From: a virus
IMG/VR virus record: IMGVR_UViG_3300044970_001685
DNA length: 64,000 nucleotides
Reading direction: 5' to 3' (one strand)
Shown: piece after piece, positions 49,398 through 64,000 of the stretch
How positions within the stretch are numbered: position 1 is the stretch's first letter
Layout: each line of letters starts with the position of its first letter
Made by a program: the position numbers and the translations under genes
The notes under the pieces: model-generated
Told to the model about the DNA's origin: nothing
Database searches by the model: none
What the model saw: only the letters and a program-made list of their open reading frames with translations

Positions 49398-49591
49398 CAC
49401 TTCCGATTTATTTTACTGATAATACTTATAGAACCGTACAAAAGAATGTGGTAGAAACTAATATCACATTAGAATTGCCTTATAAGACTGGTTTTATTCA
49501 GGCAGACTCTGAAAATAATACCGTTGACATTGAACCTGGTATTGAGTTAAGTATTAATGATGGTTGTATTTTAATCATAACAGAAAACTAA
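49394..49591 (+). CDS. stand-alone copy of preceding C-terminal domain
   Basis: NVVETNITLELPYKT vs NVVESNITVALPYKT; ATGA coupling. Confidence 0.7.
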   Translation: MTLPIYFTDNTYRTVQKNVVETNITLELPYKTGFIQADSENNTVDIEPGIELSINDGCILIITEN

Positions 49592-49618
49592 TCTAAATAA
49601 CTAAAAAGTAAGTTCAAG

Positions 49619-50503
49619 ATGTCAACATTAAGAGTAGACAATATTAAATCAAGAACTGGAAGTACAGTTACGATTCCAGAATCTAATACTCTTGCAGTGA
49701 CTGGTATTGCTTCTATTTCTGGAAATACTAATGTTTCTGGATCTTTGAATGTTACTGGTGCTCTGAATGTAACTGGAAGTGGAACTGTTAATACCAGTGG
49801 TATTATGACCTGTGGTGGTCTTACTGTTAATGGCAATATGACAGTAGATGGGACCACTACCACTATTAGTTCTGTAAATCTGGTTGTAGAAGATAAGAAT
49901 ATTGGTATTGGAACTACTACTTCACCATCAAATACCACAGCAGATGGTGGTGGTATTACAATCTTTGGTGGTTCTGATGGAGATAAGACTTTAACTTGGA
50001 ATAGCAACTCTGATGCATTTGCTTTCAGCAATGGTGTTGACATTAGAGGTGCTGTTGAAACTGTAAGCACGGCATCAACTTATGCAATCAGTGGATCAAC
50101 AAATGTTATCTTAGAGTGTGATGCTCATAACGGAACGGTATTTACTCATAGTCTTGCAAATGGGCAGGTTGGTATTGTTTCACTCAGAGACTTCGCAGTT
50201 ACAAAGAACTCTCTGACGACTTATACTATTATCTTTACTCAAAATGCAACTGGAACTGGAAACACGACAGGATCCACTGGTATTGGAACAAATATTTTCT
50301 TAAAACCTTATAATGTTGCTGGATTCTCAACTTCGGCAAGAGTTTCTAGTGGAAGCACTGTAACTATTTCATCAACTGCAAATGATGTTGATATTGTCAG
50401 TCTTGCAGTTCATTATAATGGTGGGTCAACAGGAACTGTTGGAAACTATATTGTATATGCTACTGACAATGGCAACTTCAGATACGGTGGTGTAAGACCA
50501 TAA
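49619..50503 (+). CDS. fibre protein
   Basis: MSTLRVDNI start, VEDKNIGIG..TADGGGI; late promoter CTAAATA 49593. Confidence 0.8.
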   Translation: MSTLRVDNIKSRTGSTVTIPESNTLAVTGIASISGNTNVSGSLNVTGALNVTGSGTVNTSGIMTCGGLTVNGNMTVDGTTTTISSVNLVVEDKNIGIGTTTSPSNTTADGGGITIFGGSDGDKTLTWNSNSDAFAFSNGVDIRGAVETVSTASTYAISGSTNVILECDAHNGTVFTHSLANGQVGIVSLRDFAVTKNSLTTYTIIFTQNATGTGNTTGSTGIGTNIFLKPYNVAGFSTSARVSSGSTVTISSTANDVDIVSLAVHYNGGSTGTVGNYIVYATDNGNFRYGGVRP

Positions 50504-50518
50504 TAGGAGGACTGGATC

Positions 50519-51598
50519 ATGTTTGAATGGCATAAGAAAGAAAAACCAGTCTTTACTGGTATTGCAAGAGGTGTTGGTGGATTTGGGTTTGGTGGAGCTG
50601 CTGCTGCAGTAGGTATTTCTGCTCCTTCTGTATTTTCTGCGTCAGGTGGAACAAATACTATAGCAGGGATAACTCCGGGAAATGGTTATAGATATCATGT
50701 TTTTCTTTCACCAGGAAATTTTGTTGTAGATGGAGGATCTAAAAATATTGATGTTTTAATTGTTGCTGGTGGTGGTGGTGCTGCTAATCCACTTGCTGCT
50801 GGTGGTGGTGCAGGAGGTATTGTTAGGCATAGTTCATATGTAGTGACAGCAGGAACATATCCTATTGGAGTAGGAAATTCTGGACAGGGTGCTGCTCAAA
50901 CTACTCCTGCTGGTGGTCCAACAGGAAGAAAGGGATCACCTTCTACTGCTTTTGGAATGGTTGCAGATGGTGGAGGTGGTGGTGGTCCGTATGATGGTGT
51001 CGTGCCAAATATGCCGGAACATTCTGGTGGATCTGGTGGTGGAGGCAGAACATATACCGGAGAACCAACATACACCCCAGGATTTATAGGAGGAACAGGA
51101 ACACAACCAACGCTCAATGTTCCATTTACACCAAGTCCATTCTTTTCTCAATACGGAAATCCTGGTGGTACCGGTGGATCTGATCCAAAAGGTGCTGGTG
51201 GCGGTGGTGCTGGATCTGCTGGCAGTCCAGCTGCTGGGCAATCTGGGAATGGACCTGGTGGAGCAGGACAACCATTTCCAGCATTTGCTGCTCCATTAAT
51301 TTCTCCAGAAATTCCTGTTCCTGTGCAACCACTTTGGATTCCTGCTGTTGGGCCAACTGGTCTGTATGGCGGTGGTGGTGGTGGAGGAGGAAGAAACGAG
51401 ACCGACCCAAATGGAGGTATTGGAGGACCTGGAGGCGGTGGAAATGGATCTCCTTCTCCTGTAAATATAAATGGATGTGGAACACCTGGAATTAAATATA
51501 CCGGAGGAGGTGGAGGATCTGGATCTTATACTGGTTGTGGAAATGTGCCAGCAGCATCAGGTGGAGATGGTATAGTTATTATTAGATATCAAATTTGA
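50519..51598 (+). CDS. Gly/Pro-rich (polyglycine) putative fibre-tip adhesin
   Basis: VLIVAGGGG, AGGGGAGG, GGSGGG, GGDGIVIIRY. Confidence 0.8.
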   Translation: MFEWHKKEKPVFTGIARGVGGFGFGGAAAAVGISAPSVFSASGGTNTIAGITPGNGYRYHVFLSPGNFVVDGGSKNIDVLIVAGGGGAANPLAAGGGAGGIVRHSSYVVTAGTYPIGVGNSGQGAAQTTPAGGPTGRKGSPSTAFGMVADGGGGGGPYDGVVPNMPEHSGGSGGGGRTYTGEPTYTPGFIGGTGTQPTLNVPFTPSPFFSQYGNPGGTGGSDPKGAGGGGAGSAGSPAAGQSGNGPGGAGQPFPAFAAPLISPEIPVPVQPLWIPAVGPTGLYGGGGGGGGRNETDPNGGIGGPGGGGNGSPSPVNINGCGTPGIKYTGGGGGSGSYTGCGNVPAASGGDGIVIIRYQI

Positions 51599-51623
51599 CA
51601 CTTTCCATAATCTCATATATAAT
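51595..51623 (+). promoter_or_regulatory. consensus sigma70 promoter for the oxygenase block
   Basis: TTGACA 51595-51600, 17 bp, TATAAT 51618-51623. Confidence 0.85.
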
Positions 51624-51646
51624 GAAAATGAATACATTATTCAAAT

Positions 51647-52267
51647 ATGGCATTTCAATCAATTTGGTATTTTTCTGATCTACCAGAAGATGTAGTAGAT
51701 CTCATCGAACGAGACCTTTCAGAAAAGTTCGAAGAGCAAATGGCAGACTCCCGACTTCATGGAGATGCCCTAAACAAAGATAAACGAAACTCACAAAACG
51801 CTTGGATTCCAACCACACATTGGGTTGGTGGATTTGTATGGCACTATATTGAACGCGCAAACCGCGAGAACTTCCTCTATGACCTTCGTTGTATTGATGG
51901 TGAATCAATGCAGTTTACGAAGTATAGTGAAGGGCAATTCTATGGTTGGCATAATGACGCAGGACTTGCAACTCAATACAAACCAGTAAGCGTCGGTAAT
52001 CGTCAAGATGGACTGGCACAAGATTTCTTGAATGAGAATATTGAACTTGTGCGTAAACTTTCATTTGTGGTTCAACTGTCAGACCCCGATGATTATGAAG
52101 GTGGAAACTTGCAACTGCTTGATGAGTCAGGTAATAGTTATATTGCTCCTCGTAAGCGTGGCACTGTCATTCTATTTGATTCTCGCACACAACATAGAGT
52201 TCTAAAAGTTACAAAAGGAACCCGTAAATCCCTTGTTGGATGGACGGTTGGACCCCGCTGGAAGTGA
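51647..52267 (+). CDS. 2OG-Fe(II) oxygenase (prolyl-4-hydroxylase-like)
   Basis: WHND, RKLS, YEGG, HRV, R.SLVGW. Confidence 0.92.
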   Translation: MAFQSIWYFSDLPEDVVDLIERDLSEKFEEQMADSRLHGDALNKDKRNSQNAWIPTTHWVGGFVWHYIERANRENFLYDLRCIDGESMQFTKYSEGQFYGWHNDAGLATQYKPVSVGNRQDGLAQDFLNENIELVRKLSFVVQLSDPDDYEGGNLQLLDESGNSYIAPRKRGTVILFDSRTQHRVLKVTKGTRKSLVGWTVGPRWK

Positions 52268-52275
52268 GGTAAATT

Positions 52276-52998
52276 ATGGCAGAACAAATGAGCGAACTAG
52301 ATCTAATGATGCAGGAACGTAGAAATACGGGAACTGCTTGGACTCGTAATGAGTCTTTTGAGAAGAATGGATATTTAGTGATTAAAAATTTATGGGATCA
52401 AGAAGAACTTTATCACCCCGTACCAGAAGAGCGTGGACAGATGAACTGGTGGGGTAAAAAGATGGACCAGTTTACCTATACACCAGTAGAGCAACAGGTT
52501 GAAGGTTCACTTGCACGTTATTGGCATCCACAATACCGTCAGATTCACTGTGGTGTTCGTATGAAACTTGAAGAAGCACTGGGTCGAAAACTTTATAATA
52601 CTTATTATTATGATAGATACTACTTCCCAGGGCAGGAACTTACCCGTCACGCAGACCGTGATGCTTGTGAGATTTCTGTGACGGTTCATATCAGTACCAA
52701 CCTGGAAGGAAAGGATGCTGATTGGCCCATCTGGATCAAAACTCCTGATACTTATGCAGATAAGAAGAGGACACAAGTATTAGTTCCTGGTGAAAATCGT
52801 TCTGTAATTCTCAAAGCAGGTGATGGGATGGTTTATAAAGGTTGTGAACGCCCACATTGGAGAGACCCAATGCCTGGTGCAAAGAAGAGTAAGAAACTGT
52901 TTGGTAAGAGTGCTGACCTTTATTATCATCAAATCTTCTTCCATTATGTCCTACAAGATGGACAACGTGCTCACTGTGCTTGGGATAGGGCACGATGA
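52276..52998 (+). CDS. 2OG-Fe(II) oxygenase
   Basis: HADRDACEIS, GDGMVYKG, HWR, QIFFHY. Confidence 0.85.
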   Translation: MAEQMSELDLMMQERRNTGTAWTRNESFEKNGYLVIKNLWDQEELYHPVPEERGQMNWWGKKMDQFTYTPVEQQVEGSLARYWHPQYRQIHCGVRMKLEEALGRKLYNTYYYDRYYFPGQELTRHADRDACEISVTVHISTNLEGKDADWPIWIKTPDTYADKKRTQVLVPGENRSVILKAGDGMVYKGCERPHWRDPMPGAKKSKKLFGKSADLYYHQIFFHYVLQDGQRAHCAWDRAR

Positions 52999-53660
52999 AT
53001 TTTAAAAGGTTTGTAAGTGCTTCACCTCAAACCCCCTATGCTCCAACTTGGGATTTTAGAGTTGGAACTTCTTTATGTGAAAATATTGATACTAACTCTC
53101 TTTCCCAGTTCTTATTAAGTAAAGAAAAAGAAGTAAAAAAACTACCAATATCTACCAGTTATATTGGTAAAAATGTTGATGGATACACTGGATTAGGAAA
53201 AAATAGTACAACATCTAAATTTCAATATTATAATATTCTTACTTGGAATCATCCTGAAATAAAAAAATTAAAACAACAAATTGTTAAAAATTTAATAATT
53301 TATAATAATGAGTGTGGAAATCAAACTCCAAATGAGTTATGGGTTCAATGTTGGTATAATGTATTGAGATTTGGTCAAAAAATTAAACCGCATTCGCATT
53401 CAACCAGCAGTGTTTCCTATTTAAGTGGTCACTTTAATCTTCAAGTAGAAAATACTTCAACTGTTTATATGTCACCAATCAATCAAATAAATGATCCAGA
53501 AATCATTGAGATTAAAAATAAAAATGGAGATATGACTTTGTTTCCATCATATATTTTTCATTATACAACCCCACACTATTCACTTAAACCAAGAATAACA
53601 ATCGCATTTGATATTTGTCCATATAACCATGCACTATATAATAATGCTATACGATTATGA
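52995..53660 (+). CDS. putative 2OG-Fe(II) oxygenase (TIGR02466-like)
   Basis: WYN, PHSH, LSG, LFPSYIFH, RITIAFD. Confidence 0.85.
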   Translation: MNFKRFVSASPQTPYAPTWDFRVGTSLCENIDTNSLSQFLLSKEKEVKKLPISTSYIGKNVDGYTGLGKNSTTSKFQYYNILTWNHPEIKKLKQQIVKNLIIYNNECGNQTPNELWVQCWYNVLRFGQKIKPHSHSTSSVSYLSGHFNLQVENTSTVYMSPINQINDPEIIEIKNKNGDMTLFPSYIFHYTTPHYSLKPRITIAFDICPYNHALYNNAIRL

Positions 53661-54211
53661 AAACTCAACTTTTTGAATACCCTTCTTATCAGTATCAGAT
53701 TGATGATTGGGATTTTAAAAAGAAGGGACTTCTCAATCGTATCAACTCTCAAAAGTTTGTAAGAACTACACTGCAAACTTTTGAGACTGATCGTCAAACA
53801 AATCGCAAAAATTATATTCATTACTTCCAAGACCTCATCAAACCTCAACTGTTTGAATTCTGTCAGGAAGCACAAGTCACTTGTAGTATGACTGATGCCT
53901 GGTCTGTGAGATATAAACAAGGAGACCACCAGACGATTCACAACCATCGCAGTTGGGGATTCTCTGGTGTTCTTTATGTTGAGTTTGATTCAAAGCATCA
54001 TACTCCTACTTGTTTTGTTGCTCCCTGGCAAGACCCAAGAACTGATACAACAACTCTGGCATATCCTCAAGATGTCAAAGAGGGAACATTAGTCATCGTT
54101 CCTTCTTATACATTACACTTTGTTCATCCTAATCAATCAAGAAAGCAGAGAACAATTATTGCTTTTGATTTACTTCCTAAACTTCCAGATCATCAAGCAA
54201 TAAATACTTAA
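53657..54211 (+). CDS. putative 2OG-Fe(II) oxygenase (TIGR02466-like)
   Basis: HNH, SGVLY, EG..PSY.LH, RTIIAFD. Confidence 0.85.
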   Translation: MKTQLFEYPSYQYQIDDWDFKKKGLLNRINSQKFVRTTLQTFETDRQTNRKNYIHYFQDLIKPQLFEFCQEAQVTCSMTDAWSVRYKQGDHQTIHNHRSWGFSGVLYVEFDSKHHTPTCFVAPWQDPRTDTTTLAYPQDVKEGTLVIVPSYTLHFVHPNQSRKQRTIIAFDLLPKLPDHQAINT

Positions 54212-54224
54212 AAAAGTATTTAAA

Positions 54225-54479
54225 ATGTCTTACTTTATTAAGAAAGTACAAACTATTCAAAGACAAACTAAATCAATTTATTATCAGGGAAATTATAATT
54301 GGTCAACTAATTTTGATGATCGTAAATTATACGCTTCTCAGGAAGAAGCAACCACTGAACTTTATGCGTTTGGTGGTTTTGTTGTAAATAATGATGGATA
54401 TAATCCAAACGCGATAGACGGTGATGGTGATGGAATTGTTCAGGAAGGAACTGAGTTTGAAAGACCAACAGGTACTTGA
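54225..54479 (+). CDS. small late protein with DGDGDG Ca-binding-like motif
   Basis: late promoter AATAAATA 54199; NAIDGDGDGIVQEGT. Confidence 0.7.
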   Translation: MSYFIKKVQTIQRQTKSIYYQGNYNWSTNFDDRKLYASQEEATTELYAFGGFVVNNDGYNPNAIDGDGDGIVQEGTEFERPTGT

Positions 54480-54511
54480 TAAGCATAAATAACTGAAAAG
54501 TATAACTCAAA

Positions 54512-55267
54512 ATGTCTGAAATAAGAGTTAATAATATTAAAAATGAGGCAGGAACTGGTGCTCCTACATTTCCAAATGGAGCAACAGTTCTTGGTACATT
54601 AACATCATCACAAGATGTTCAGGTTGGTGGTGCTCTGACTGTAACTGGTAATCTAACAGTTAATGGTACTCAGACAATTATTAATACAACTAATTTAGAA
54701 ATAACAGATCCTCTTGTTGGTATTGGATCTGGAAATACCACAGATGCACAAGCAGATGGTGATGGTATTCGGATTTATGGAACAACCAATAAGACTTTTA
54801 CATATAACGATACTAAGAAATCTTTTGAAGCAAATATTCCAATCGCTCCAAATGAAAGTAGATTTATTACTGGTGCGGAAAAGACTGCATTGATTTCGGG
54901 AAATACTGCAACATTAACATATAATTCTTCAAGTGCTAACGTTGCAATCTGCACAAATGCAACTGGCAATATTACGTTAAATGTTGTTGGTATTCCGACA
55001 TCCAGTGATTTTGATAATCACGCTGTAACCTTTACTGTGATTGCAACTTCAACGAGTGGTATTGCAAGAACTTGTACTGCTGTTAATATGAATGGAGTTT
55101 CTAAGACAATTAAGTGGGCAGGTGGTTCTCTTGCCAATGCTGTTTCCGGAATGACTACAACTGCTGGTTATACGATCTACGGATTTACTGGAATCAATAC
55201 CATTGGTTCTGCAAGCACGACTGATAACTATGAAGTATTTGGTGTAGCAAGCGGAGGATTCTATTGA
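54512..55267 (+). CDS. fibre protein
   Basis: MSEIRVNNI start; C-domain homologous to that of the 35156 protein. Confidence 0.8.
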   Translation: MSEIRVNNIKNEAGTGAPTFPNGATVLGTLTSSQDVQVGGALTVTGNLTVNGTQTIINTTNLEITDPLVGIGSGNTTDAQADGDGIRIYGTTNKTFTYNDTKKSFEANIPIAPNESRFITGAEKTALISGNTATLTYNSSSANVAICTNATGNITLNVVGIPTSSDFDNHAVTFTVIATSTSGIARTCTAVNMNGVSKTIKWAGGSLANAVSGMTTTAGYTIYGFTGINTIGSASTTDNYEVFGVASGGFY

Positions 55268-55268
55268 T

Positions 55269-56291
55269 ATGGCACCTATTATAAGCAGACTTTCTTCTCT
55301 TGGCGGAGGGGGAACTGGTGGATTTAGTTTTGGAAAAAGAAAAGTCCCTCTTGCTGCTGTCGGTGGTGTTAAAGCAAGTGGAGGTACTATAATTCCAAGT
55401 GCCGAATCTGGAAATGGATATACTTATCACGTATTTTTATACCCAAATGCAGATAATCTTATAGTAAACACTGCAATTACTGCGGATGTTTTAATTGTTG
55501 CTGGTGGTGGTGCTGGTGGTGGACATTTTTATGCAGGTGGTGGAGGAGCAGGTGGTGTTGTCTATGGACCCAATGTTCCACTTTCTGCCGCTTCACACAC
55601 CATTTCTGTTGGTAAAGGTGGAGATAAGGCACCAGGCGCACAAGGTGGTTCTGGAAGTAATTCTTTAATTTCTGGTCCTATAATAGGAACAATCACAGCA
55701 GTAGGTGGTGGAGCAGGAGGTCCAGTAGCTGCATTACCTGGTGGTTCTGGTGGTGGAAGTGGTCAATATTCAAATACAACTACACCAGCGGCACCTCAAC
55801 CAGTTCCTGGATTATTTACTGCTTATGGAAATGCTTCTACTACTACCACTGGATATGGTGATGGTGGCGGCGGAGCTGGTGGAGGAAATCTTGCTGCTCC
55901 TGCACCAACACGAGGAGGACACGGTGGTGCTGGACAACCATTCCCTGGATTCCCATCAACCATACTTGCTCCTGCGATACCTGCACCAATAAGACCACGA
56001 TGGTCTCCTACTGTAGGACCAACAGGATATTTTGGCGGTGGCGGCGGCGGAGCAAATTATTATACTACTACAGTTCGACCTTTAGGTGGTGTTGGTGGCG
56101 GCGGAGAAGGTGGTGGTGGTATAAATCGAGGTCCAGTTGGTGAGTATGATAACGGAGATCCTGGTGTTAATTTCACCGGTGGTGGAGGAGGTGGTGCAAA
56201 TTATGTTACTAGTACTACTAATCCACTCAACCCAACTCCTGGTGCTGGTGGAGATGGTGGACACGGTATTGTGATTGTCAGATATCAATAA
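55269..56291 (+). CDS. Gly/Pro-rich putative fibre-tip adhesin
   Basis: paralog of 50519 (GNGY.YHVFL, GGAGQPFP, VGPTG, GIVIVRYQ). Confidence 0.8.
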   Translation: MAPIISRLSSLGGGGTGGFSFGKRKVPLAAVGGVKASGGTIIPSAESGNGYTYHVFLYPNADNLIVNTAITADVLIVAGGGAGGGHFYAGGGGAGGVVYGPNVPLSAASHTISVGKGGDKAPGAQGGSGSNSLISGPIIGTITAVGGGAGGPVAALPGGSGGGSGQYSNTTTPAAPQPVPGLFTAYGNASTTTTGYGDGGGGAGGGNLAAPAPTRGGHGGAGQPFPGFPSTILAPAIPAPIRPRWSPTVGPTGYFGGGGGGANYYTTTVRPLGGVGGGGEGGGGINRGPVGEYDNGDPGVNFTGGGGGGANYVTSTTNPLNPTPGAGGDGGHGIVIVRYQ

Positions 56292-56327
56292 ATTGGTGTA
56301 TAATAAATGTAAGTAAAGTATTTTATT

Positions 56328-57131
56328 ATGATCTTTGGTGGAAAAAAATATTATTTTCTTTCTGGATTACCTAGATCTGGAAATACTTTACTTGGATCTA
56401 TTCTCAACCAAAATAAAAACATATGTGTAACTGCTAATAGTCCAGTTGCAGATGTTTTTTATGAGATAGAAAATTTAAAAAACACTGATCCAAAATTTGT
56501 AAACTTTCCAGATACAAAATCAATAGATAATATAAGTAAAAAAATATTCTGTAATTATTATCGTGACTGGAAGTTTAAGTATATTATCGATAGGTCTTGT
56601 TGGGGAACTCCTGATAATTTAGAACTACTCAAAAAGTATTGTCCTAATGAAATAAAAGTAGTTGTATTAATTAGAGATTTAAACGAGATATTAGCATCTT
56701 TCCTTTATTGGTCTGAAAATAATAAAGGTAATTTTTTAGAAGAATTCAATACAACTGAAAAAAAGTGTGAAGTTTTAATGGACAGCAACGGACAGATTAT
56801 GAAATCTTTACACTCTTTATATAATTTAAATAAAAGCGAAAATAAAAGACACGCACTTTTCGTAAAGTATGAAGATCTTGTTTCTGATACTGAAAATAAG
56901 ATAAATCAAATTTATAAGTTTTTAGGAATAAAAAAATATCATCATCAACTAGAAAATATTTCTAATTTTAAATCTAATGAAATTGAATATAATGATATTG
57001 TTTTTGGACGTAATTTACACCGAGTAAAAAGTAAAATAAAAAAAACCGAATATAACTATCAAGATTATGTTCCAAAATCAATCATTGAAAAGTATAAAAA
57101 TTATAACTCATTGTATCTTTCATTAAAATGA
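56328..57131 (+). CDS. sulfotransferase family protein
   Basis: PAPS-binding GLPRSGNTLL, IRD..E.LAS, VKYEDLV. Confidence 0.9.
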   Translation: MIFGGKKYYFLSGLPRSGNTLLGSILNQNKNICVTANSPVADVFYEIENLKNTDPKFVNFPDTKSIDNISKKIFCNYYRDWKFKYIIDRSCWGTPDNLELLKKYCPNEIKVVVLIRDLNEILASFLYWSENNKGNFLEEFNTTEKKCEVLMDSNGQIMKSLHSLYNLNKSENKRHALFVKYEDLVSDTENKINQIYKFLGIKKYHHQLENISNFKSNEIEYNDIVFGRNLHRVKSKIKKTEYNYQDYVPKSIIEKYKNYNSLYLSLK

Positions 57132-57655
57132 ACTTTAACTATCAGTTTGTTGGAAAATTAAATTTCTTTCAGAGAATAAAAATAATCAGAAAGGTTAAAA
57201 AAATTTCAAAGTTAGAGTGGGGAGAATTTGATTTTAGACAAAAAACATTTGAAGCTCATAAGTTTACTCAAACTGTTCCTGTTATCTTTGATAAAAATTT
57301 TCAAAGTACAAAAACAAAATGGTATGATTTATTTCAAAAAGAACTAAAAGATATTGAAAATATCTGTGTGAGACACTATGGGCAAGGAAAAATTGTTCGT
57401 GTTATTTTGACAAAACTGTATTCGCAAAAATCAATACCACCACATATAGATTCTGGTCATTTACTTGAAGGAATTCGAAGAATACATATTCCGTTAATAT
57501 CAAATAAAAAAGTTTTATTTGTAGTTGATGATGAAGTTAAAAATATGAAAGTTGGTGAAATGTGGGAAATTAATAATACAAATAAAATACACTCTGTAAA
57601 TAACAACAGTGATATTGATAGGGTGCATTTTATAGTTGATTTTATAAATACCTAA
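57128..57655 (+). CDS. aspartyl/asparaginyl beta-hydroxylase-like 2OG oxygenase
   Basis: IPPHID, RIHIPL, GEMWEINN, HSV.N, RVHFIVD. Confidence 0.88.
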   Translation: MNFNYQFVGKLNFFQRIKIIRKVKKISKLEWGEFDFRQKTFEAHKFTQTVPVIFDKNFQSTKTKWYDLFQKELKDIENICVRHYGQGKIVRVILTKLYSQKSIPPHIDSGHLLEGIRRIHIPLISNKKVLFVVDDEVKNMKVGEMWEINNTNKIHSVNNNSDIDRVHFIVDFINT

Positions 57656-57664
57656 AAACCTCCA

Positions 57665-58066
57665 ATGGCATACATCGGAAGACCACAACAAACTGGTCCA
57701 TACATTAAACTTGATGATATTTCAGATCAGTTTGACGGAACTAAAACCACTTTTAATTTGACACTTGGTGGTCAACCATACTTTACATCAAATCCTTATA
57801 CATTACTTTTATCACTTGATGGTGTCATTCAAGAACCCGTCGTTTCTTATGTCATTAGTGAGAATCAAATCACCTTTGCTGCTGCTCCTACATCAACAGG
57901 AAGATTTTACTGTATTGTGTTTGGAACTACTCTAAACACCGCTGCACTAACAAGTCTGACAATAGGAACCAGAACAACTGCTGCAACACTACCATTAAAT
58001 GGCGAACAACTTGGAGTTTTACAAAGAGATGGAACCAAAGGATTCATTGCATTTAATGTGGCATAA
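57665..58066 (+). CDS. structural protein
   Basis: LDDIS..FDG..TFNLT, LDGVIQEP; late promoter TATAAATA upstream. Confidence 0.75.
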   Translation: MAYIGRPQQTGPYIKLDDISDQFDGTKTTFNLTLGGQPYFTSNPYTLLLSLDGVIQEPVVSYVISENQITFAAAPTSTGRFYCIVFGTTLNTAALTSLTIGTRTTAATLPLNGEQLGVLQRDGTKGFIAFNVA

Positions 58067-58091
58067 ATAATCAAAAGACTATTCAGATATA

Positions 58092-58727
58092 ATGGCGAAT
58101 AGATATCCGCTGATTTATAACTCCAATGCGAATCAACTTCAAGAACTCCAAGCAGGAGATAATCTTGATTTAGGTGGTTCGGGGATTAGTAGCGTAGGTA
58201 ATATTAGTAATGTAGGTAATATAAACTCAACGGGTATTATCACTGCAACTTCTTTCAGTGGGACTTTTAGTGGCACTTCAACACTTGCATCGGGACTAAC
58301 TGGTTCTCCAAGTATTGTTGTAAATAATCTTTATACATCTGGCATAAGCACTTTCACCCAAAACATAAATCTTCGTGATAATGTTAAGGCAAACTTTGGT
58401 GATGGTGATGATCTCAGAATCTATCACGATGGAACAAACAGTTATGTAGAAGATACGGGAACTGGAAACTTATATCTTTCTGGTTCAACTGATGTCATCA
58501 TTCAGCATCACAGCACTGGTGAAACGATGGCAAAGTTCACTGGCAATGGTGCCTCTGAACTTTATTATGATAATAGTAAAAAGTTTGAAACCGTTAGTGC
58601 TGGTGCTACGGTCACTGGAACTTTATATGCTACAAATTTTGTTGGTAATGGTTCACAACTAACTGGTATTGCTGCTGGTGGTGGTGAAGGTTCTTACAAT
58701 GAACTTGATGGTATGCTTTTTGGATAA
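58092..58727 (+). CDS. fibre-like protein
   Basis: DLRIYHDG..ELYYDNSKKFET module shared with 44329 protein. Confidence 0.75.
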   Translation: MANRYPLIYNSNANQLQELQAGDNLDLGGSGISSVGNISNVGNINSTGIITATSFSGTFSGTSTLASGLTGSPSIVVNNLYTSGISTFTQNINLRDNVKANFGDGDDLRIYHDGTNSYVEDTGTGNLYLSGSTDVIIQHHSTGETMAKFTGNGASELYYDNSKKFETVSAGATVTGTLYATNFVGNGSQLTGIAAGGGEGSYNELDGMLFG

Positions 58728-58750
58728 ATAACTTAAAAAAGAACAATACG

Positions 58751-59158
58751 ATGTCACTCAAAAGAACTAAACTACTGGGAATACAATCAGTCACTGGTAT
58801 TGCAACAGTAGGTATTTTGACAGTTGGAACAACTCAAACTGCTGGTGGAGTTGGAATTGCATCAACCACTTATGTTCGTGGTGTGATAATGCACAATACT
58901 GGATTTGCAACTTGCACTTCATCTCTTTATGTGTATCCAAGTAGTGTCGCTTCTCCTGTGACAGGTGTTGGACAAACTGCTTATCGTTTAGCAAGAGTAG
59001 ACTTATCGCAGAATGAAACTTTTTTCTTTGAAATGAATTATCCTTTGGTTCTTACAAATCAAGAAAAGATCGTTGTGGAAGTTATACCACCAGGGTCGGG
59101 AGGAGCAGGTATTGGTAGTGTCGTGAACTATCAAATTCTTGGTGATACTGATATCTGA
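58751..59158 (+). CDS. small tail-associated protein
   Basis: late promoter GATAAATA; beta-rich, YPLVL. Confidence 0.7.
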   Translation: MSLKRTKLLGIQSVTGIATVGILTVGTTQTAGGVGIASTTYVRGVIMHNTGFATCTSSLYVYPSSVASPVTGVGQTAYRLARVDLSQNETFFFEMNYPLVLTNQEKIVVEVIPPGSGGAGIGSVVNYQILGDTDI

Positions 59159-59173
59159 TAAGAGGTAAATAGA

Positions 59174-60304
59174 ATGGGTGCAAAAAGTTCAGACAAAGGA
59201 CCTAAAGGTGTTGGTAATAATAAAAGGTTAGATCAACATCTTGTTGAATATTTCAGTACAAAAAGAACGAGTGGAATATCGACAAATTATGTTCCTCCAT
59301 TACCAAGTATAAATGCTACTGGAGGAACAATTACCACTTGGAATGATTACACAATACATTCTTTTCCTGGTGGATCACTTGATAGTTCAAATCCATACAC
59401 GTTTACTATTCCTGCAAATGCAACACCAATAATACCGTCAACTAATTTTGACATTATTCTAGTCGCTGGTGGTGGTACTGGTGGAGATGATCAACCGGGT
59501 TCATATGGAGGAGGTGGTGGTGGAGCTGGTGGAGTAAGATTTATTCCACAAATATCATTACCTGTTGGGTCATATCCAATTGGTGTTGGTGGCGGTGCTG
59601 CAGCTGCTGCGGACGGCGCACAGGGACAACCAACAGTTTTTAATGCCCCAAACGGTAATGGTGTTCCATCAATTACAGTTCATGGTGGAGGATATGGTGG
59701 AGCAGGTGGAGGAGGTGGTGGTGGAAACGGCGGTTGTGGTGGAGGAAAAGATTATCCCGGTCCAACAGCTCAATTTGGTGCAGGAAATAATGGAGCAGGA
59801 AATAGTCCAGAACCAAGAGCAAGTGGACCAACATCACCCATTGGCGATACTAGATTCCAAGGAAGTCCTGGAAACGCAACTGCCTCTGATACATCTTACT
59901 CTGGTGGTGGCGGTGGTGGAGCAAGATATAGTCCACCAACATATTACTCTTCACCAATACCAGGACCTGGTATCACTGTTCCTGCTCCCGCAGCTTCTTT
60001 TAGAGCGCAAGGTGGTGATGGAATTGATTTTAGTCCTATAATTGGACCAAGAGCAACTAATGGATTTGGTGATAGTAATTATCCAACAGAAGCTTGGTTT
60101 GGTGGTGGAGGTCATGGAGGTCAATACCCAGGAGGAACTGGTGCTCCTGGCACGGGAGGAAAAGGTGGTGGAGGTGGAGCTCCTCAACCATCAAAAAATG
60201 GACAACCAAATACTGGTGGAGGTGGAGCAGTTTATCAGGGAAATGGTGGTCCAGGAATTGTATTAATCAGATACAAAAATACTGGAGGATCTACTGGATC
60301 TTAA
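59174..60304 (+). CDS. Gly/Pro-rich putative fibre-tip adhesin
   Basis: ATGG..YTIHSF, ILVAGGG, GGGGAGG, NTGGGG, GIVLIRY. Confidence 0.8.
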   Translation: MGAKSSDKGPKGVGNNKRLDQHLVEYFSTKRTSGISTNYVPPLPSINATGGTITTWNDYTIHSFPGGSLDSSNPYTFTIPANATPIIPSTNFDIILVAGGGTGGDDQPGSYGGGGGGAGGVRFIPQISLPVGSYPIGVGGGAAAAADGAQGQPTVFNAPNGNGVPSITVHGGGYGGAGGGGGGGNGGCGGGKDYPGPTAQFGAGNNGAGNSPEPRASGPTSPIGDTRFQGSPGNATASDTSYSGGGGGGARYSPPTYYSSPIPGPGITVPAPAASFRAQGGDGIDFSPIIGPRATNGFGDSNYPTEAWFGGGGHGGQYPGGTGAPGTGGKGGGGGAPQPSKNGQPNTGGGGAVYQGNGGPGIVLIRYKNTGGSTGS

Positions 60305-60330
60305 ATATAAAACTTTTGCTTTAAAATATC

Positions 60331-60906
60331 ATGAGAGAATTTTTTGTGCTGGATAATTTTTTTGAAGATCCAGATGAGGTTAGAAAAAGAGCTTTAAATT
60401 ATTTTAGATTTTATAATTCAACAGATCATCCAGATCCTCAACATCTATTGCAGTTTCCTGGATTGAGAACCAATTATATTAATCTTCAAGATACTGAATT
60501 ATCTAAAATGATTATTGAAAAACAAGCGGCAATAACAAACTTTATTACAAATAATTGCGTAGATTGGTCGCATGAAGACAATAGAGTGTGGAATACTTTT
60601 TCACTTACTTTTAAAAATATAAACAAGCAGTTACCTCAATGGCATCAAGATTTTATTGGAGAAAATGATAATAAGTGTGAGTATTATTATGCTGGTGTTG
60701 TTTATTTAAATAAAAATGTAAGAAAAGGGAGAGGAACAAAAATAAAACTTTCTTCTGGTGAAATTGTAAATATTGAGAATAAGTATAATCGTTTTGTAAT
60801 ATACAATTCAAAACTTCCACATACGATTGCAAAATCTTTTGGATGGAATAAAGATAATGGTAGACTTGTAATGTCTCAATTTTTTTCTTTCAATCTAAAA
60901 AAATAA
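60331..60906 (+). CDS. 2OG-Fe(II) oxygenase-like protein
   Basis: LDNFFEDPD, FPGLR, WHQD, AGVVYL, NRFVIY..H, RL. Confidence 0.82.
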   Translation: MREFFVLDNFFEDPDEVRKRALNYFRFYNSTDHPDPQHLLQFPGLRTNYINLQDTELSKMIIEKQAAITNFITNNCVDWSHEDNRVWNTFSLTFKNINKQLPQWHQDFIGENDNKCEYYYAGVVYLNKNVRKGRGTKIKLSSGEIVNIENKYNRFVIYNSKLPHTIAKSFGWNKDNGRLVMSQFFSFNLKK

Positions 60907-60930
60907 ATAGATAAAACAAGAAGGGCAACG

Positions 60931-61317
60931 ATGTTTAATTTTGCGAGAGTTAATTCCAATAACAAAGTTGTAGATGTTGTCTTTGTATTTGATGATATTG
61001 TAACAGATGATGATGGCAATTTATATGAACATTGGGCATACACTTACTTGTATGAAAAATATCCAGATTCAAAAAAAGATTATTGGGTAATGATTGATAA
61101 TAAAAAAAATTGGGGATACATAGGTAATACCTTTGATAAGTTTAAAGATGGATTTATTTCTGAAAAACCATATCCATCGTGGACATTGGATGAAAACACT
61201 TTGAAGTGGACTCCACCTGTACCAGAACCAATTTTAACTGATGAAGAAAAAGAAGTTTCAACTAATTTAAACTGGAATGAAGAACTTCAAGTATGGGAAA
61301 AATATACCTTAATATGA
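60931..61317 (+). CDS. tail-associated hypothetical protein
   Basis: FARV..N.V, KPYPSWTLDE..W.PP; paralog of 61363. Confidence 0.7.
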   Translation: MFNFARVNSNNKVVDVVFVFDDIVTDDDGNLYEHWAYTYLYEKYPDSKKDYWVMIDNKKNWGYIGNTFDKFKDGFISEKPYPSWTLDENTLKWTPPVPEPILTDEEKEVSTNLNWNEELQVWEKYTLI

Positions 61318-61362
61318 TATAATAAATATTTTAAAATAACATCAATTAATATAAAGAAAACA

Positions 61363-61785
61363 ATGGCACACTTTGCACAACTAGATGAAAACAACGTGGT
61401 AACTCAGGTCATTGTAGTTGCCAATGAAGATACTTCGGATGTAAACGGAAACGAAGTAGAAGAAATCGGTGTAGCATTCTGTAAGAAACTTCTGGGTGCT
61501 GATACCAACTGGAAGCAGACTTCATACAACAATACTTTCCGTGTGAGATATGCAGGTATCGGTTACTCCTACAATGCAGAACTGGATGCTTTCATTGCAC
61601 CAAAGACCTTTGAGTCTTGGGTTCTCAACACAGAAACCGCTGACTGGGAATCGCCAGTTGGTCCTGCTCCTGCATTGACCGAAGCAGAGATTGAAGCACG
61701 TTCATTCTATCGCTGGGACGAAGAAGCAGGTGCTTGGGAACTCTTTACTCCCGAACCACCAGCAGAAGAAACACCTGCCGAATGA
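61363..61785 (+). CDS. tail-associated hypothetical protein
   Basis: MAHFAQLDENNVV, WKQTSYN, YAGIG; late promoter AATAAATA 61321. Confidence 0.75.
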   Translation: MAHFAQLDENNVVTQVIVVANEDTSDVNGNEVEEIGVAFCKKLLGADTNWKQTSYNNTFRVRYAGIGYSYNAELDAFIAPKTFESWVLNTETADWESPVGPAPALTEAEIEARSFYRWDEEAGAWELFTPEPPAEETPAE

Positions 61786-61790
61786 TACGC

Positions 61791-61814
61791 AAGGAGGGGC
61801 AACCCTCTTTTTTT
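61791..61814 (+). terminator. intrinsic terminator
   Basis: GAGGG-GCAA-CCCTC-TTTTTTT. Confidence 0.8.
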
Positions 61815-61852
61815 ATAACTAAATAATAGCAACGCAGATCATCTATAAATCA

Positions 61853-63475
61853 ATGCCCCTTATCGGCAATCCTTATGTCGTTGGAGATACGACAGGAAAC
61901 TTTAAGAAACTTGATAATCTTTCGTCATACACTTTGACGTTTGATCCGTCAGTTAAAGTATCTCTCACAAACGACACAATCACTGAAATAGATCATAGGT
62001 TCGTTACAGGACAGAGAGTCACCTATACGCACGGCGGTGGAAGTGCAATCGGTGGTCTGACTTCTGGAAGTGCTTATTATATTGTAAAAGAAGATGTAAA
62101 TACGGTTAAACTTGCTTCAACATATGCAGATGCGCTTGCAAGCAATACAATCAATCTGACTTCTGTTGGATCGGGAACTGCTCATACACTAAATCTTGCT
62201 TTTGATGGGATTAACACAAGATTTAGAGCGACTTATAATAATGGAACAGGAGCAAGAATCACAAATGCTTCTCAACTGACCATTTCAATCAATGGTGTTC
62301 TACAACAACCATTTGAGACTGCAACACCTTCAGAAGGTTATGGTATTGAGCATCCTGGTGTTATTGTTTTTTCAGTTGCTCCTGGTAGTGGCGATGTCTT
62401 CTGGGGAAACATTATTGCCAATAATTTCCCAACTTATGATATTAGTGATAATAAGGTTGATACTTTCACCGCAAATGGTGTAGATACTGATTTTACACTC
62501 TCCCAAGTAGCACCAAATAATGAAAGCGTTCTTGTAACGATTGATGGTGTTACACAATATCCAAGTGATAATGATACTGCAAGATCATATTCAATCTATG
62601 GTAGTGTTCTAAGTTTTACTGAGGCACCATCTCCTGGGGCATATATTCAGGCAAGACACATTGGTTTTGCTGGTGCCACAAGTAGTGCAGTCACTGGATT
62701 TAATGGAAGAACTGGTAATGTTGGACTAAGAACTGGTGATCCATTAGTCGGTGTTGGTATTCAATCTGGTGGACTCGTAGTTGGAACTGGTGTTACCATT
62801 CTAAACTTTGTAGGAACTGGAAATACTTTTGCCGTTGTCGGTGATCGTGTCGACATCAGCATTCAAGGTGGTGGAGGTAGTGGTTCACTTGTTGCCAAAC
62901 AATCATTTACGATCACATCTACTCAGTCAGTTTTCACATTAACTGAGGAATATGATGCTGGAATGGTTGATGTTTATGTGAATGGTGTACGTCTACCTTC
63001 TGGTGATTTTACAGAAACTATTCCAAATATAGTCACACTTGGAACAGCAGCAGAGGCAGGGGACATAGTTGAATTTATTTCATATAGTCAAAGAATTGAG
63101 AACACAGTTTTACAGTCAACACTTACAAATCTTCGTGTAACTGGCATTAGTTCTGTTGGCACTGGTATTACAATGACTGCTTCTTCTGGAAGCATAAGCG
63201 CAACAACATATTATGGTGATGGATCAAATCTAACAAATCTAAAAGCGGGTGTAGGGACAAATGTTTCTACTGTAGATGGATTTACTTATATTGATCAAAG
63301 TGGAAAATTAATCACATCAAATATAGTATTTGATACAACAAACTCTGGAACTTCTGACTCTTATGTTCTATTGAAAGATCAAAAAATGACTATAAACACT
63401 GGTGTTGGAGTTACTATTGGTGATGGAAAACTTTTAATAATCAATGCTTTTGACTTACCAAATCCACTCACATAA
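61853..63475 (+). CDS. virion structural protein (baseplate/fibre-associated)
   Basis: H.F.TG..VTY, INGVLQ.P, IDGVTQ.P, VYVNGVRL modules; late promoter CTAAATA 61819. Confidence 0.75.
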   Translation: MPLIGNPYVVGDTTGNFKKLDNLSSYTLTFDPSVKVSLTNDTITEIDHRFVTGQRVTYTHGGGSAIGGLTSGSAYYIVKEDVNTVKLASTYADALASNTINLTSVGSGTAHTLNLAFDGINTRFRATYNNGTGARITNASQLTISINGVLQQPFETATPSEGYGIEHPGVIVFSVAPGSGDVFWGNIIANNFPTYDISDNKVDTFTANGVDTDFTLSQVAPNNESVLVTIDGVTQYPSDNDTARSYSIYGSVLSFTEAPSPGAYIQARHIGFAGATSSAVTGFNGRTGNVGLRTGDPLVGVGIQSGGLVVGTGVTILNFVGTGNTFAVVGDRVDISIQGGGGSGSLVAKQSFTITSTQSVFTLTEEYDAGMVDVYVNGVRLPSGDFTETIPNIVTLGTAAEAGDIVEFISYSQRIENTVLQSTLTNLRVTGISSVGTGITMTASSGSISATTYYGDGSNLTNLKAGVGTNVSTVDGFTYIDQSGKLITSNIVFDTTNSGTSDSYVLLKDQKMTINTGVGVTIGDGKLLIINAFDLPNPLT

Positions 63476-63498
63476 ATAACTAAAAAAGAAGCGTAAAG

Positions 63499-64000
63499 AT
63501 GTCGCAGTTAAATGTTGATACTATAAAAAATAAAGCAGGTACTGGCGGACCTACTTTACAAGCATTGACAGTAACAACTGATGCAACGGTTACTGGTGTT
63601 GTAACTGCTTCTAGTTTTGTTGGACCAGTAACTGGAAATGTAACTGGAAATATTAACTCTTCAGGTGTTTCTACGCTAACAACTCTAAACGGAACATCAG
63701 GTCTTGTAAGTCTTGGATCAACAATCAAGACCAAAGGATTTGTAGAAACTCAAACTTCTGCAACGACGACATCAAATGTTCTTTCCCTCGATGCATCAAA
63801 CGGGACAGTATTTACTCATACGACAACTTCACAGATTGGTATTGTTTCATTCAGAGGTATAAGAACAGAAACAGCAGGAACTCAAACATTCTCAGTTCTT
63901 GTAACACAAGGTGCATCACCAACCAATACAACAGGTGCGACAGGAATTGGAACTCAACTTGCAACTGTTGTAACAACTGGTGGAGTTGGATATAGCACTC
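63499..64000 (+). CDS. fibre protein, paralog of 49619 (truncated by window end)
   Basis: MSQLNVDTIKNKAGTGGPT...DASNGTVFTH..GIVS; open to window end; late promoter CATAAATA 63471. Confidence 0.8.
   Translation, partial: MSQLNVDTIKNKAGTGGPTLQALTVTTDATVTGVVTASSFVGPVTGNVTGNINSSGVSTLTTLNGTSGLVSLGSTIKTKGFVETQTSATTTSNVLSLDASNGTVFTHTTTSQIGIVSFRGIRTETAGTQTFSVLVTQGASPTNTTGATGIGTQLATVVTTGGVGYST

Follow-up and report, generated by a model that had tools for sequence, protein, structure and literature searches.

What do the 2OG-Fe(II) oxygenases and the sulfotransferase that a T4-like cyanophage encodes directly behind its tail-fibre tips act on? The question is raised by a window of 64,000 nucleotides, in which three cassettes on the + strand each run from one or more small fibre or adaptor genes through a glycine-rich tip (starts 50519, 55269, and 59174) to one or more enzyme genes. 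The first-pass annotation, made from the letters of the window, had described this repeated module and proposed that the enzymes modify the neighbouring adhesin; the threefold repeat was borne out, with every ORF present where it had been placed and the tip and enzyme families assigned using Pfam. Four oxygenase-type genes lie downstream of tip 1, a sulfotransferase and an Asp/Asn-hydroxylase-like gene downstream of tip 2, and one weak oxygenase-like gene downstream of tip 3. All 8 enzyme ORFs fall within the 23 ORFs of the 48.2–63.5 kb region, and the 49 ORFs upstream of it contain none (hypergeometric p = 4e-5).

The cyanophage oxygenase expansions (T4-GC 412, 615, 155, 180; PMC3037559, PMC9602691) are of the same gene families, which these papers regard as auxiliary genes of scattered location with roles in 2OG, nitrogen, or DNA repair; PMC3037559 proposes either DNA repair or a part in 2OG and nitrogen signalling. 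In line with the earlier remark that the expansions lack known substrates, neither paper gives a function for them, and neither describes a systematic placement behind tips or a conserved promoter.

Fibre Modules and Glycine-rich Tips

Module 1 opens with fibre adaptor 1 (49619..50503, 294 amino acids; phrog_36132, 1.5e-51), which is 43% identical to Bellamy gp50, and module 2 with its paralogue, fibre adaptor 2 (54512..55267, 251 amino acids; phrog_36132; 29% identity, E 3e-12). The late-promoter-like motif CTAAATA is found upstream of adaptor 1 and the late motif CATAAATA upstream of adaptor 2; late motifs also precede 28 of 30 adaptor 1 homologues and 11 of 11 adaptor 2 homologues. The first-pass annotation had a fibre or adaptor gene before every tip; modules 1 and 2 have an adaptor, and module 3 has three small fibre genes instead (57665..59158; starts 57665, 58092, and 58751; 133, 211, and 135 amino acids), which match tail-fibre and virion PHROGs and are each preceded by a NATAAATA motif (late motifs at 57643, 58063, and 58724). 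Between the oxygenase genes of module 1 and module 2 lies an 84-amino acid protein of unassigned function (54225..54479; phrog_24339) with a late motif upstream, ATAAATA being present before its homologues in 4 of 4 cases. Module 3 continues past its enzyme gene with two paralogous small proteins of 128 and 140 amino acids (60931..61785; phrog_7759), homologues of which lie immediately 3′ of Gly-rich genes in Bellamy and in loci L006, L022, L027, L038, L045, and L101. An intrinsic-terminator-like hairpin (61791..61810, + strand; 8-bp stem with 4 GC pairs, then a T-run) closes the module, enzyme gene included.

All three tips match Gly_rich_2 (PF21722; Pfam cut-off 24.3 bits): tip 1 (50519..51598, 359 amino acids) with 53 bits and 5e-14, tip 2 (55269..56291, 340 amino acids, starting 1 nt past adaptor 2) with 74 bits and 2e-20, and tip 3 (59174..60304, 376 amino acids) with 51 bits and 3e-13. 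They are paralogues, the other two being 48% and 37% identical to tip 1. Their composition is 27–29% Gly and 9–10% Pro (29% and 10% in tip 1) against 1–3% Pro in the adjoining fibre proteins, in agreement with the earlier description of the tips as Pro-rich.

An AF2 model of tip 2 (pLDDT 89) was matched to the glycine-rich tail tip of mycobacteriophage Bxb1 (PDB 9D93; Z 16.1) and the tail fibre gp24 of cyanophage Pam3 (PDB 7YPX/7YFW; PMC9608196; Z 15.3), with 26–29% identity over ~190 residues, and to the glycine-rich ligand-binding domain of ALK/LTK (PF12810; Z 8–9.6). This model identifies the Gly/Pro-rich proteins, as the first-pass annotation had supposed, as fibre tips of receptor-binding type; they have the TNF-like sandwich and polyglycine lattice of Pam3 gp24, and their distal fibre position is consistent with the solved Pam3 and Bxb1 examples. 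Some tips of relatives match PF12810 directly; the ALK/LTK domain is of the same fold class but belongs to an animal receptor ectodomain, and the likeness is one of fold only. Pam3 relies on a single fibre protein that carries its own docking helix, and a chaperone gene adjoins it; the tips here, by contrast, are separate short proteins behind adaptors, in several paralogues, with enzyme genes downstream. In the T2/S16-type gp37–gp38 system (PDB 6F45; PMC9608196), a separate polyglycine-rich adhesin is likewise encoded right behind the fibre it caps, but S16 gp38 has a β-helix rather than a TNF-like middle domain, lacks linked tailoring enzymes, and was absent from the fold matches. Family and fold thus show the cassettes to be receptor-binding fibre modules, each an adaptor or small fibre protein plus a tip.

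Enzymes Encoded behind the Tips

The oxygenase genes of module 1 are preceded by a sigma-70-type promoter (51595..51623, + strand; TTGACA-17-TATAAT) that matches the consensus at 12/12 positions. The first-pass annotation had raised this promoter as a caveat, and the comparison strengthened it: across 15 loci, a 12/12 promoter precedes the oxyA start by a nearly constant interval in 10 and an 11/12 promoter is present in one more (11/15), and homology between phages begins precisely at the −35 box. The first gene, oxyA (51647..52267; T4-GC 412), encodes a 2OG-Fe(II) oxygenase of PKHD/P4H type (2OG-FeII_Oxy_3, PF13640, 57 bits, 3e-15) whose nearest solved relatives are PiuC/YbiX-type hydroxylases. 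Four 2OG-Fe(II) oxygenases had been claimed here, and three have Pfam matches; the remaining gene, oxyB (52276..52998; T4-GC 615, phrog_2954, database label “ferrochelatase”), matches no Pfam or NCBIfam family. None of the 120 best listed of its 2241 homologues carries a Pfam family either, and its structure model reached a pLDDT of 35. An HxD...H pattern (H125-x-D127, H194) is invariant across nine oxyB orthologues, and from its sequence oxyB is probably an oxygenase. The last two genes, oxyC (52995..53660; 1.4e-12, with a weak TIGR02466 match) and oxyD (53657..54211; 8e-13), both belong to 2OG-FeII_Oxy_5 (PF13759, 48–49 bits), and oxyD matches an S-SM2 gene annotated GC155.

With its own perfect promoter, the core block oxyA-oxyB(-C)-oxyD forms a self-contained unit. 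It is kept at 77–90% identity (in Bellamy and S-SM2, 86–90% for oxyA and 78% for oxyD) while the tips drift to 30–45% or are swapped for non-Gly-rich proteins, namely a 919-amino acid protein in S-SM2, a 325-amino acid protein in L009, and four proteins of 103–183 amino acids in L022. The whole S-SM2 genome contains no PF21722 match, and the block is nonetheless present there at 77–90% identity; its substrate cannot be specific to Gly_rich_2 tips.

In module 2, a PAPS-type sulfotransferase (56328..57131; Sulfotransfer_1, PF00685, 58 bits, 1.3e-15; PF13469, 4.5e-14) overlaps by 4 nt an Asp/Asn-hydroxylase-family oxygenase gene (57128..57655; Asp_Arg_Hydrox, PF05118, 49 bits, 6.7e-13), whose product also weakly matches free-proline hydroxylase and TIGR04531. 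The sigma-70-like promoter ahead of the pair (56275..56304, + strand; TTGTCA-18-TATAAT, 11/12 matches) is weak evidence, because it has so far been found kept only in a 97–99% identical relative. Sulfotransferases behind tips (one in the window, two in L006, and one in L045) share 41–48% identity with each other and 23–35% with copies elsewhere, whereas the tips preceding them are only 35–39% alike.

The oxygenase reported after tip 3 is less secure. This gene, oxyE (60331..60906), is 2OG-oxygenase/DUF6445-like, scoring just under the Pfam cut-offs (PF13640, 23.5 bits; PF20043, 23.6 bits), and shows an HxD...H pattern. Its start lies 26 nt past tip 3, and it lacks a sigma-70 site.

Placement of Enzyme Genes in Related Phages

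Enzyme placement in relatives, which the first-pass annotation had named as one check of its proposal, proved non-random. In 27 non-redundant loci containing 26 enzyme blocks and 41 Gly-rich tips, 18 of the 26 blocks lie directly behind a Gly-rich tip, compared with 3.4 ± 1.6 when gene order was shuffled (18 was reached in 0 of 10,000 shuffles), in a test that ignores the shared ancestry of the loci. When only late-promoter-bearing junctions were compared, enzymes occurred in 10/27 after tips versus 6/112 elsewhere (p = 6e-5, odds ratio 10, likewise uncorrected for kinship). At least seven enzyme sub-families without mutual BLAST matches occupy the tip-adjacent position, many of the genes with a gap of 5–37 nt to the tip and no promoter motif. 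The GC412 and GC615 pair ends the fibre block in five genera (Bellamyvirus, Nilusvirus, Namakavirus, Neritesvirus, and Thaumasvirus), and in S-CAM8 and P-RSM4 a Nol-like carbamoyltransferase stands between tip and oxygenases. These counts show that tailoring-type enzymes recur behind the tips of cyanomyoviruses: 2OG oxygenases from several sub-families, one clade of sulfotransferases, and, in certain genera, a carbamoyltransferase as well. Of the 27 oxygenase hits in five genomes, 16 were in the fibre-gene portion (~12% of the genome) and 11 outside it. An enzyme neighbour is lacking for 23 of the 41 tips. Comparison of enzyme-linked tips with the rest showed no difference in the content of Pro, Asn, Asp, Ser, Thr, Tyr, or Lys, nor was X-Pro-Gly, the collagen prolyl-hydroxylase motif, enriched in the tips.

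Possible Functions of the Tip-linked Enzymes

Candidate substrates of the enzymes are the tip protein, a glycan, and a host target. We tentatively favour, at a probability of roughly 0.35, a reading in which these are fibre-linked tailoring enzymes that modify the receptor-binding apparatus during infection, inside the cell. The tip proteins would be hydroxylated and then O-sulfated by the overlapping hydroxylase/sulfotransferase pair; alternatively, a glycan attached to the tips would be the target. The enzyme genes fall into two expression classes. Promoterless genes 5–37 nt behind a tip are probably late and co-transcribed with the fibre genes. The core block and, in the window phage, the sulfotransferase pair carry their own sigma-70-type promoters and, with no terminator ahead of them, are probably expressed early and once more through late read-through.

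Tailoring is suggested by the fold and family of the tips, the behind-tip placement and its persistence among late-promoter junctions, the promoterless gaps, and the single terminator that oxyE shares with module 3. Further support comes from the seven or more unrelated sub-families at this position, the sulfotransferases that are more alike than their tips, and the crowding of oxygenases into the fibre portion, including all 8 window enzymes in the fibre region. There is also precedent in Mimivirus L230, a collagen lysyl hydroxylase/glycosyltransferase whose 2OG oxygenase activity hydroxylates a virion fibre protein of repetitive sequence as a prelude to glycosylation (PMC5802723, PMC9546862). 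The likeness is at the level of mechanism, which is the one first proposed for this locus; the L230 substrates are collagen-like Gly-X-Y repeats, whereas the tips lack X-Pro-Gly enrichment. The chlorovirus prolyl 4-hydroxylase is another virus-encoded enzyme of this kind. Counted against tailoring are the core block's own promoter and its persistence behind diverged or non-Gly-rich tips, the tips without enzymes, the equal tip composition, the oxygenases elsewhere, and the kinship-uncorrected statistics. So are the location of sulfotransferase homologues of other phages in glycan or replication clusters and the enzymes' closest characterised relatives, whose substrates are not known or are small molecules.

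Several of these points would suit autonomous cargo, morons or auxiliary metabolic genes whose targets would be host proteins, nucleic acids, small molecules, or the 2-oxoglutarate pool and which merely collect at the 3′ end of a fibre cassette, a site of tolerated insertion and frequent recombination; we regard this as possible but doubtful. The perfect oxyA promoter with homology starting at its −35 box fits an autonomous early unit, and the core block is far more conserved than the fibre genes, independent of the type of tip upstream. Oxygenases occur at other genome sites too: 64 of 67 oxyE-family members are in non-fibre contexts, in one of which (L087) the neighbours resemble gp55, gp47, and gp46 on a by-eye reading of N-termini. 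Roles in DNA repair or signalling have been proposed (PMC3037559), and the S-SCSM1 virion proteome names three non-structural proteins, none of them an oxygenase. However, enzymes favour after-tip sites even among junctions with late-promoter motifs, the fibre-region cargo is nearly all of one functional kind, and the many promoterless genes 5–37 nt behind a late structural gene would be late for host reprogramming. The sulfotransferase clade, moreover, has held its position behind tips through 41–48% divergence.

It is unlikely, though worth weighing, that the enzymes tailor carbohydrate or lipid rather than protein, the target being a host surface receptor or LPS, or a sugar precursor from the phage glycan island. 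Action on a host receptor or LPS would mean less superinfection or less progeny loss on debris and would account for the link with the matching tip; an early-type promoter suits such host-directed action. The large glycan island, which the first-pass annotation listed and proposed would extend the tip modification, does exist, with GT11, GT61, two GT2, GT47, GT6, and GT25 plus a GDP-mannose dehydratase and epimerases. A sulfotransferase homologue in S-SRM01 lies inside a glycosyltransferase/epimerase island adjoining fibre genes. In L110–L113, a sulfotransferase stands two genes upstream of a homologue of the 57128 hydroxylase, linked as in the window, beside a putative carbamoyltransferase and a GT9-like protein (read from N-termini). 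The Nol-like carbamoyltransferase of S-CAM8 and P-RSM4 and a weak match of the window sulfotransferase to the Nod-factor enzyme NoeE point the same way. Against this, the island is 20–35 kb upstream of the fibre/enzyme modules, membrane or export signals are absent, and among known members of these 2OG-oxygenase families no sugar-tailoring enzyme could be matched.

It is very unlikely that the adjacency is a single ancestral order, an oxygenase pair at the fibre end copied with cassette duplications and without present function, as the GC412 and GC615 pair in five genera, the strong synteny of T4-like genomes, and placement tests blind to relatedness might suggest, because at least seven sub-families without detectable mutual similarity, plus sulfotransferases, in different cassettes require repeated independent insertions.

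For cyanomyoviruses, the tip-adjacent placement of these genes provides a testable lead on the role of phage enzymes that have long been unexplained.

Layout of the fibre region

The phage of the window is a T4-like cyanomyovirus (Kyanoviridae). In a megablast search, none of the named phages proved close to the whole region at the DNA level. By protein comparison, Synechococcus phages S-SM2 and Bellamy share 77-90% identity with the window in the products of the oxygenase block, and an IMG/VR contig of 45.9 kb is 96-99% identical. ORF order on the + strand, together with Pfam assignments, bore out the repeated module described in the first-pass annotation. All genes in this part lie on the + strand, beginning with adaptor 1 (49619), tip 1 (50519, Gly-rich, Pfam Gly_rich_2), four enzyme-type genes (51647, 52276, 52995, and 53657; oxyA to oxyD) and an 84-aa ORF (54225). 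These are followed by adaptor 2 (54512, a paralogue of adaptor 1), tip 2 (55269, Gly_rich_2), a sulfotransferase assigned by Pfam (56328) and a gene of the Asp/Asn hydroxylase family (57128, PF05118), which overlaps the sulfotransferase gene by 4 nt. Three small fibre genes (57665, 58092, and 58751) then precede tip 3 (59174, Gly_rich_2), an oxygenase-like gene scoring just under the Pfam cut-offs (60331, oxyE), two genes for phrog_7759 proteins (60931 and 61363) and a terminator-like hairpin (61791-61810, +). The start of a fourth adaptor-like gene could be seen at the window's edge (63499-64000); in the 96-99% identical contig, the fourth adaptor-like gene precedes a 441-aa Gly-rich tip, after which comes a reverse-strand gene, so no enzyme stands immediately behind the fourth cassette.

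The block behind tip 1 had been described as four 2OG-Fe(II) oxygenases. Three of these were confirmed by Pfam, with 2OG-oxygenase scores of 57.4 bits (51647), 48.3 bits (52995), and 49.1 bits (53657), all above the gathering score, while the fourth, oxyB, has no domain match. OxyB (52276-52998; T4-GC 615, phrog_2954) gave no hit in Pfam or NCBIfam, and alignment against oxyA by hhalign was negative, both alignments being shallow. It carries an invariant HxD...H pattern; its AF2 model reached a pLDDT of 35, and its Atlas leads stood at 0.90. The database label "ferrochelatase" for this gene cluster was discarded, as it is backed by no domain match of any kind. With more than 2,200 homologues in the searched protein collection, the best 120 of them 72-90% identical, oxyB is a very abundant and strongly conserved cyanophage protein.

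Gly-rich tips

The three tips are mutual paralogues, matching PF21722 at 53.3, 74.1, and 50.7 bits (cut-off 24.3), and 228 Gly-rich homologues were found by searching. A tblastn search of phages with a Gly-rich tip gave no match, and a search for related loci with the tip alignment confirmed none; both outcomes are probably due to low-complexity filtering and are no sign that tips are absent. Their richness in Gly (27-29%) and Pro (9-10%), remarked on previously, was confirmed, and the values are typical for the family; Lys and Arg are few. The AF2 model of tip 2 (pLDDT 89) shows a TNF-like β-sandwich with a lattice of extended polyglycine segments, preceded by ∼35 N-terminal residues without order. 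A search of PDB sequences with the tip profile gave no match, and relatives were recovered by fold search only: the Bxb1 tail-tip protein (9d93_Qa, Z 16.1), the Pam3 fibre protein gp24 (7ypx_A, Z 15.3) and the glycine-rich domain of ALK/LTK (Z 8-9.6; ALK 9.6), with the best unrelated fold at Z 3.4. The tips thus belong to the Pam3 gp24/Bxb1 type of glycine-rich fibre tip. In Pam3, the TNF-like sandwich bearing the polyglycine lattice, with its variable distal loops, is the receptor-recognizing end of the fibre (PMC9608196). From gene order and these solved homologues, we infer that the tips would likewise be the distal fibre ends of the virion that bind the receptor. The N terminus is common to tips behind the same type of adaptor, which fits docking onto the adaptor.

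Two tips linked to adaptor 1 homologues (L008:11085-11987 and L013:6214-7617) match ALK_LTK_GRD (PF12810) rather than Gly_rich_2, and the 325-aa tip of locus L009 joins the N-terminal docking motif to a body not rich in Gly. The docking end is thus kept and the body of the tip exchanged. The X-Pro-Gly logic of collagen-type prolyl 4-hydroxylases could be rejected for the tips of the window, where Pro-Gly counts were 7, 6, and 9 versus 10.8, 8.8, and 10.4 expected from shuffling. Nor did composition differ between tips with and without an enzyme neighbour.

The small phrog_7759 proteins (60931-61317 and 61363-61785) are paralogues, and their homologues very often stand directly after Gly-rich tip genes (Bellamy gp34 and loci L006, L022, L027, L038, L045, and L101). 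None, including the 140-aa protein encoded at 61363, had a sequence match to any solved protein. Because the Pam3 fibre gene is followed by a chaperone gene, these proteins may by analogy be tip chaperones.

Placement of enzyme genes behind tips

Gene order was compared across 35 IMG/VR loci, anchored on the adaptor and not on any enzyme, and five named phages. An enzyme block was counted as following a tip if nothing stood between them but a phrog_7759 gene or a gene on the reverse strand. By this rule, 18 of 26 enzyme blocks in 27 non-redundant loci, shared ancestry being ignored, stand behind a Gly-rich tip gene. Shuffling of gene order gave 3.4 ± 1.6, and 18 was reached in none of 10,000 shuffles, so that the co-occurrence check proposed in the first-pass annotation shows a placement that is not random. 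Among junctions carrying the late-promoter motif, an enzyme gene followed in 10 of 27 after tips versus 6 of 112 elsewhere (p = 6e-5, again ignoring shared ancestry). Within the window, the 8 enzyme ORFs are all found in the fibre region, which has 23 ORFs, and the 49 ORFs upstream include none (p = 4e-5, with a domain listing that leaves aside seven low-ranking families). Of 27 oxygenase matches in five complete or near-complete genomes, 16 lie in the ∼12% of the genome given over to fibre genes. The enzymes behind tips belong to seven or more sub-families that do not match one another by BLAST. Shared ancestry is ignored in all of these tests, and independent placement events are nearer 8-10 in number than 26.

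Against a simple scheme in which each enzyme modifies the neighbouring tip, Gly-rich genes without an enzyme behind them account for 23 of 41, and in Bellamy one of six Gly-rich genes is followed by a confirmed oxygenase and a second by a 180-aa protein without a domain match. In S-CAM8 (L004:4813-6423, -) and P-RSM4 (L005:4725-6389, -), a Nol-like carbamoyltransferase gene on the opposite strand separates the Gly-rich tip gene from an oxygenase pair, lying exactly between them; it encodes another tailoring-type enzyme in the post-tip slot. The layout recurs in the cultured phages Bellamy, S-CAM8, P-RSM4, and S-MbCM6. The module does repeat, and the rule for enzyme placement stands as a genuine result of the comparison. 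It is not described in two papers in which these genes are treated as scattered auxiliary genes (PMC3037559, PMC9602691).

Transcription of the oxyA block and of other tip-adjacent enzymes

The sigma-70 promoter previously assigned to the first block held up, with a perfect TTGACA-17-TATAAT in front of oxyA. Of 15 non-redundant loci, 10 have this promoter with 12 of 12 consensus positions and one more has it with 11 of 12; its distance to the oxyA start codon is near-fixed across them. In a ten-locus alignment, similarity starts exactly at the -35 box, with none upstream. The late motif of cyanomyoviruses carried by fibre genes, NATAAATA (PMC2984593), was found upstream of 28 of 30 adaptor 1 homologues, 11 of 11 adaptor 2 homologues and 0 of 15 oxyA genes. 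Given the sigma-70 promoter, the homology from the -35 box and the lack of a late motif, the block is therefore a self-contained, early-type unit. In the fibre-gene intergenic regions (49590-63500), this late motif includes the stop TAA of the preceding gene, an overlap that is very regular between cassette genes (e.g. 54485, 58063, 58724, and 63472).

The interval from tip 1 to oxyA holds no terminator-like site, so late read-through into the block is likely. The sole terminator candidate after the block falls within the 84-aa ORF; set beside a moron-type element, the block thus has its own promoter and homology from that promoter onwards, and lacks an insulating terminator of its own. Infection-time transcriptome literature offered nothing usable to class GC412 (oxyA) or GC615 (oxyB) as early or late.

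The block is also found with other partners. Its proteins are 77-90% identical between phages with tips only 30-45% identical, and in S-SM2, whose whole genome has no PF21722 match, it stands behind a 919-aa fibre protein that is not Gly-rich. It likewise follows the 325-aa tip of L009 and, in L022, four proteins of 103-183 aa, none of them Gly-rich. Specificity of the core block for Gly_rich_2 tips is ruled out by these cases: the four genes behave as an independent sigma-70 operon, the substrate of which is not specific to such tips. In L009, a 263-aa ORF between oxyB and oxyD (12923-13714) gave a weak I-HmuI NUMOD-like match (E 0.006, under the Pfam cut-off); a homing endonuclease may have inserted there into the operon.

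This behaviour is what would be expected were the enzymes autonomous cargo acting on other targets, a reading that we hold to be a serious possibility, if still an unlikely one. A different pattern, which speaks for a link to the fibres, was seen for many tip-adjacent enzyme genes in relatives (L008, L014, L022, L025, L029, L045, and L101). These begin 5-37 nt downstream of the gene before them, lack both the sigma-70 and the late motif, and so would be transcribed with the late fibre genes. Such timing would be unusual for a gene that reprograms the host and is what one expects of a morphogenesis factor. OxyE (60331-60906; 23.5 and 23.6 bits against cut-offs of 27 and 24) similarly lies inside a late unit that spans 57665 to the terminator at 61791. 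Most of its relatives occur outside fibre contexts; the neighbours of one, in L087, look by eye like gp55, gp47, and gp46.

Sulfotransferase, hydroxylase, and glycan genes

The sulfotransferase behind tip 2 matches Sulfotransfer_1 at 57.9 bits (cut-off 22) and Sulfotransfer_3 at 53.7 bits (cut-off 27), and the product of 57128 matches PF05118 at 49.2 bits (cut-off 22.6). In loci L110-L113, too, a sulfotransferase is found two genes upstream of the hydroxylase homologue. This order and the 4-nt overlap in the window suggest two steps on one substrate, in which the hydroxylase would make a hydroxyl group and the sulfotransferase would then sulfate the same substrate. The sulfotransferases that follow tips form a group of their own, at 41-48% identity, behind tips only 35-39% alike; homologues in S-SRM01, S-SCSM1, and L110-L113 occur in glycan or replication contexts or in those read as carbamoyltransferase. 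The closest characterized relatives of the enzymes (PiuC/YbiX-type hydroxylases, a free-proline hydroxylase, TIGR02466, and the Nod-factor enzyme NoeE) do not point to a protein substrate.

The glycan island, proposed in the first-pass annotation to extend the modification, is present in the window, and its family matches were confirmed. It covers ∼20 kb of low GC (29-36%) at 12648-33280 and encodes a GDP-mannose dehydratase, epimerases, GT11, GT61, two GT2, GT47, GT6, FkbM methyltransferases, nucleotidyltransferases, an aldolase, and a HAD phosphatase; a GT25 match was among the scanned ORFs, its position within the window not pinpointed. Tailoring of glycans or of the host surface by the enzymes is a reading that we consider unlikely.

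Discussion

Tailoring of the receptor-binding apparatus by the enzymes encoded behind the tips is the best single hypothesis for this arrangement, with a probability of about 0.35. Inherited synteny without present function, which would draw on the shared ancestry of the loci and has to accommodate separate placements of several sub-families, is highly improbable. A fuller form of the tailoring hypothesis, in which cyanomyoviruses modify their tips post-translationally with phage enzymes, one hydroxylase or hydroxylase/sulfotransferase set per cassette, and host range is set by the marks too, is at present a rather doubtful proposition. On that model, marks on the polyglycine adhesin, or a glycan built on them, would set host range besides sequence. 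No published data were found on a modified virion residue that depends on such an enzyme. As a process, the proposed modification recalls that of Mimivirus, whose collagen-like fibre proteins are hydroxylated and glycosylated (PMC5802723, PMC9546862). What is reported here is a recurrent arrangement of known enzyme and tip families, which we did not find described in PMC3037559 or PMC9602691.

The rule linking many oxygenase genes, together with a clade of sulfotransferases, to the 3' ends of receptor-binding cassettes yields a concrete, testable hypothesis. Few phage gene families without a known function are as abundant in the ocean as the 2OG-Fe(II) oxygenases of cyanophages, of which up to 24 occur in a single genome. 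Published ideas on their role are indirect, involving the 2OG pool or DNA repair (PMC3037559). The large expansions of oxygenase genes in cyanophages would be accounted for as well if cyanomyoviruses did modify their tips with phage enzymes. Should the tips prove to be unmodified, the conserved sigma-70 operon within the late fibre region would still mark a widely shared early function worth study. Hydroxylation or sulfation of the tips, if true, would to our knowledge be a new layer of phage host-range determination.
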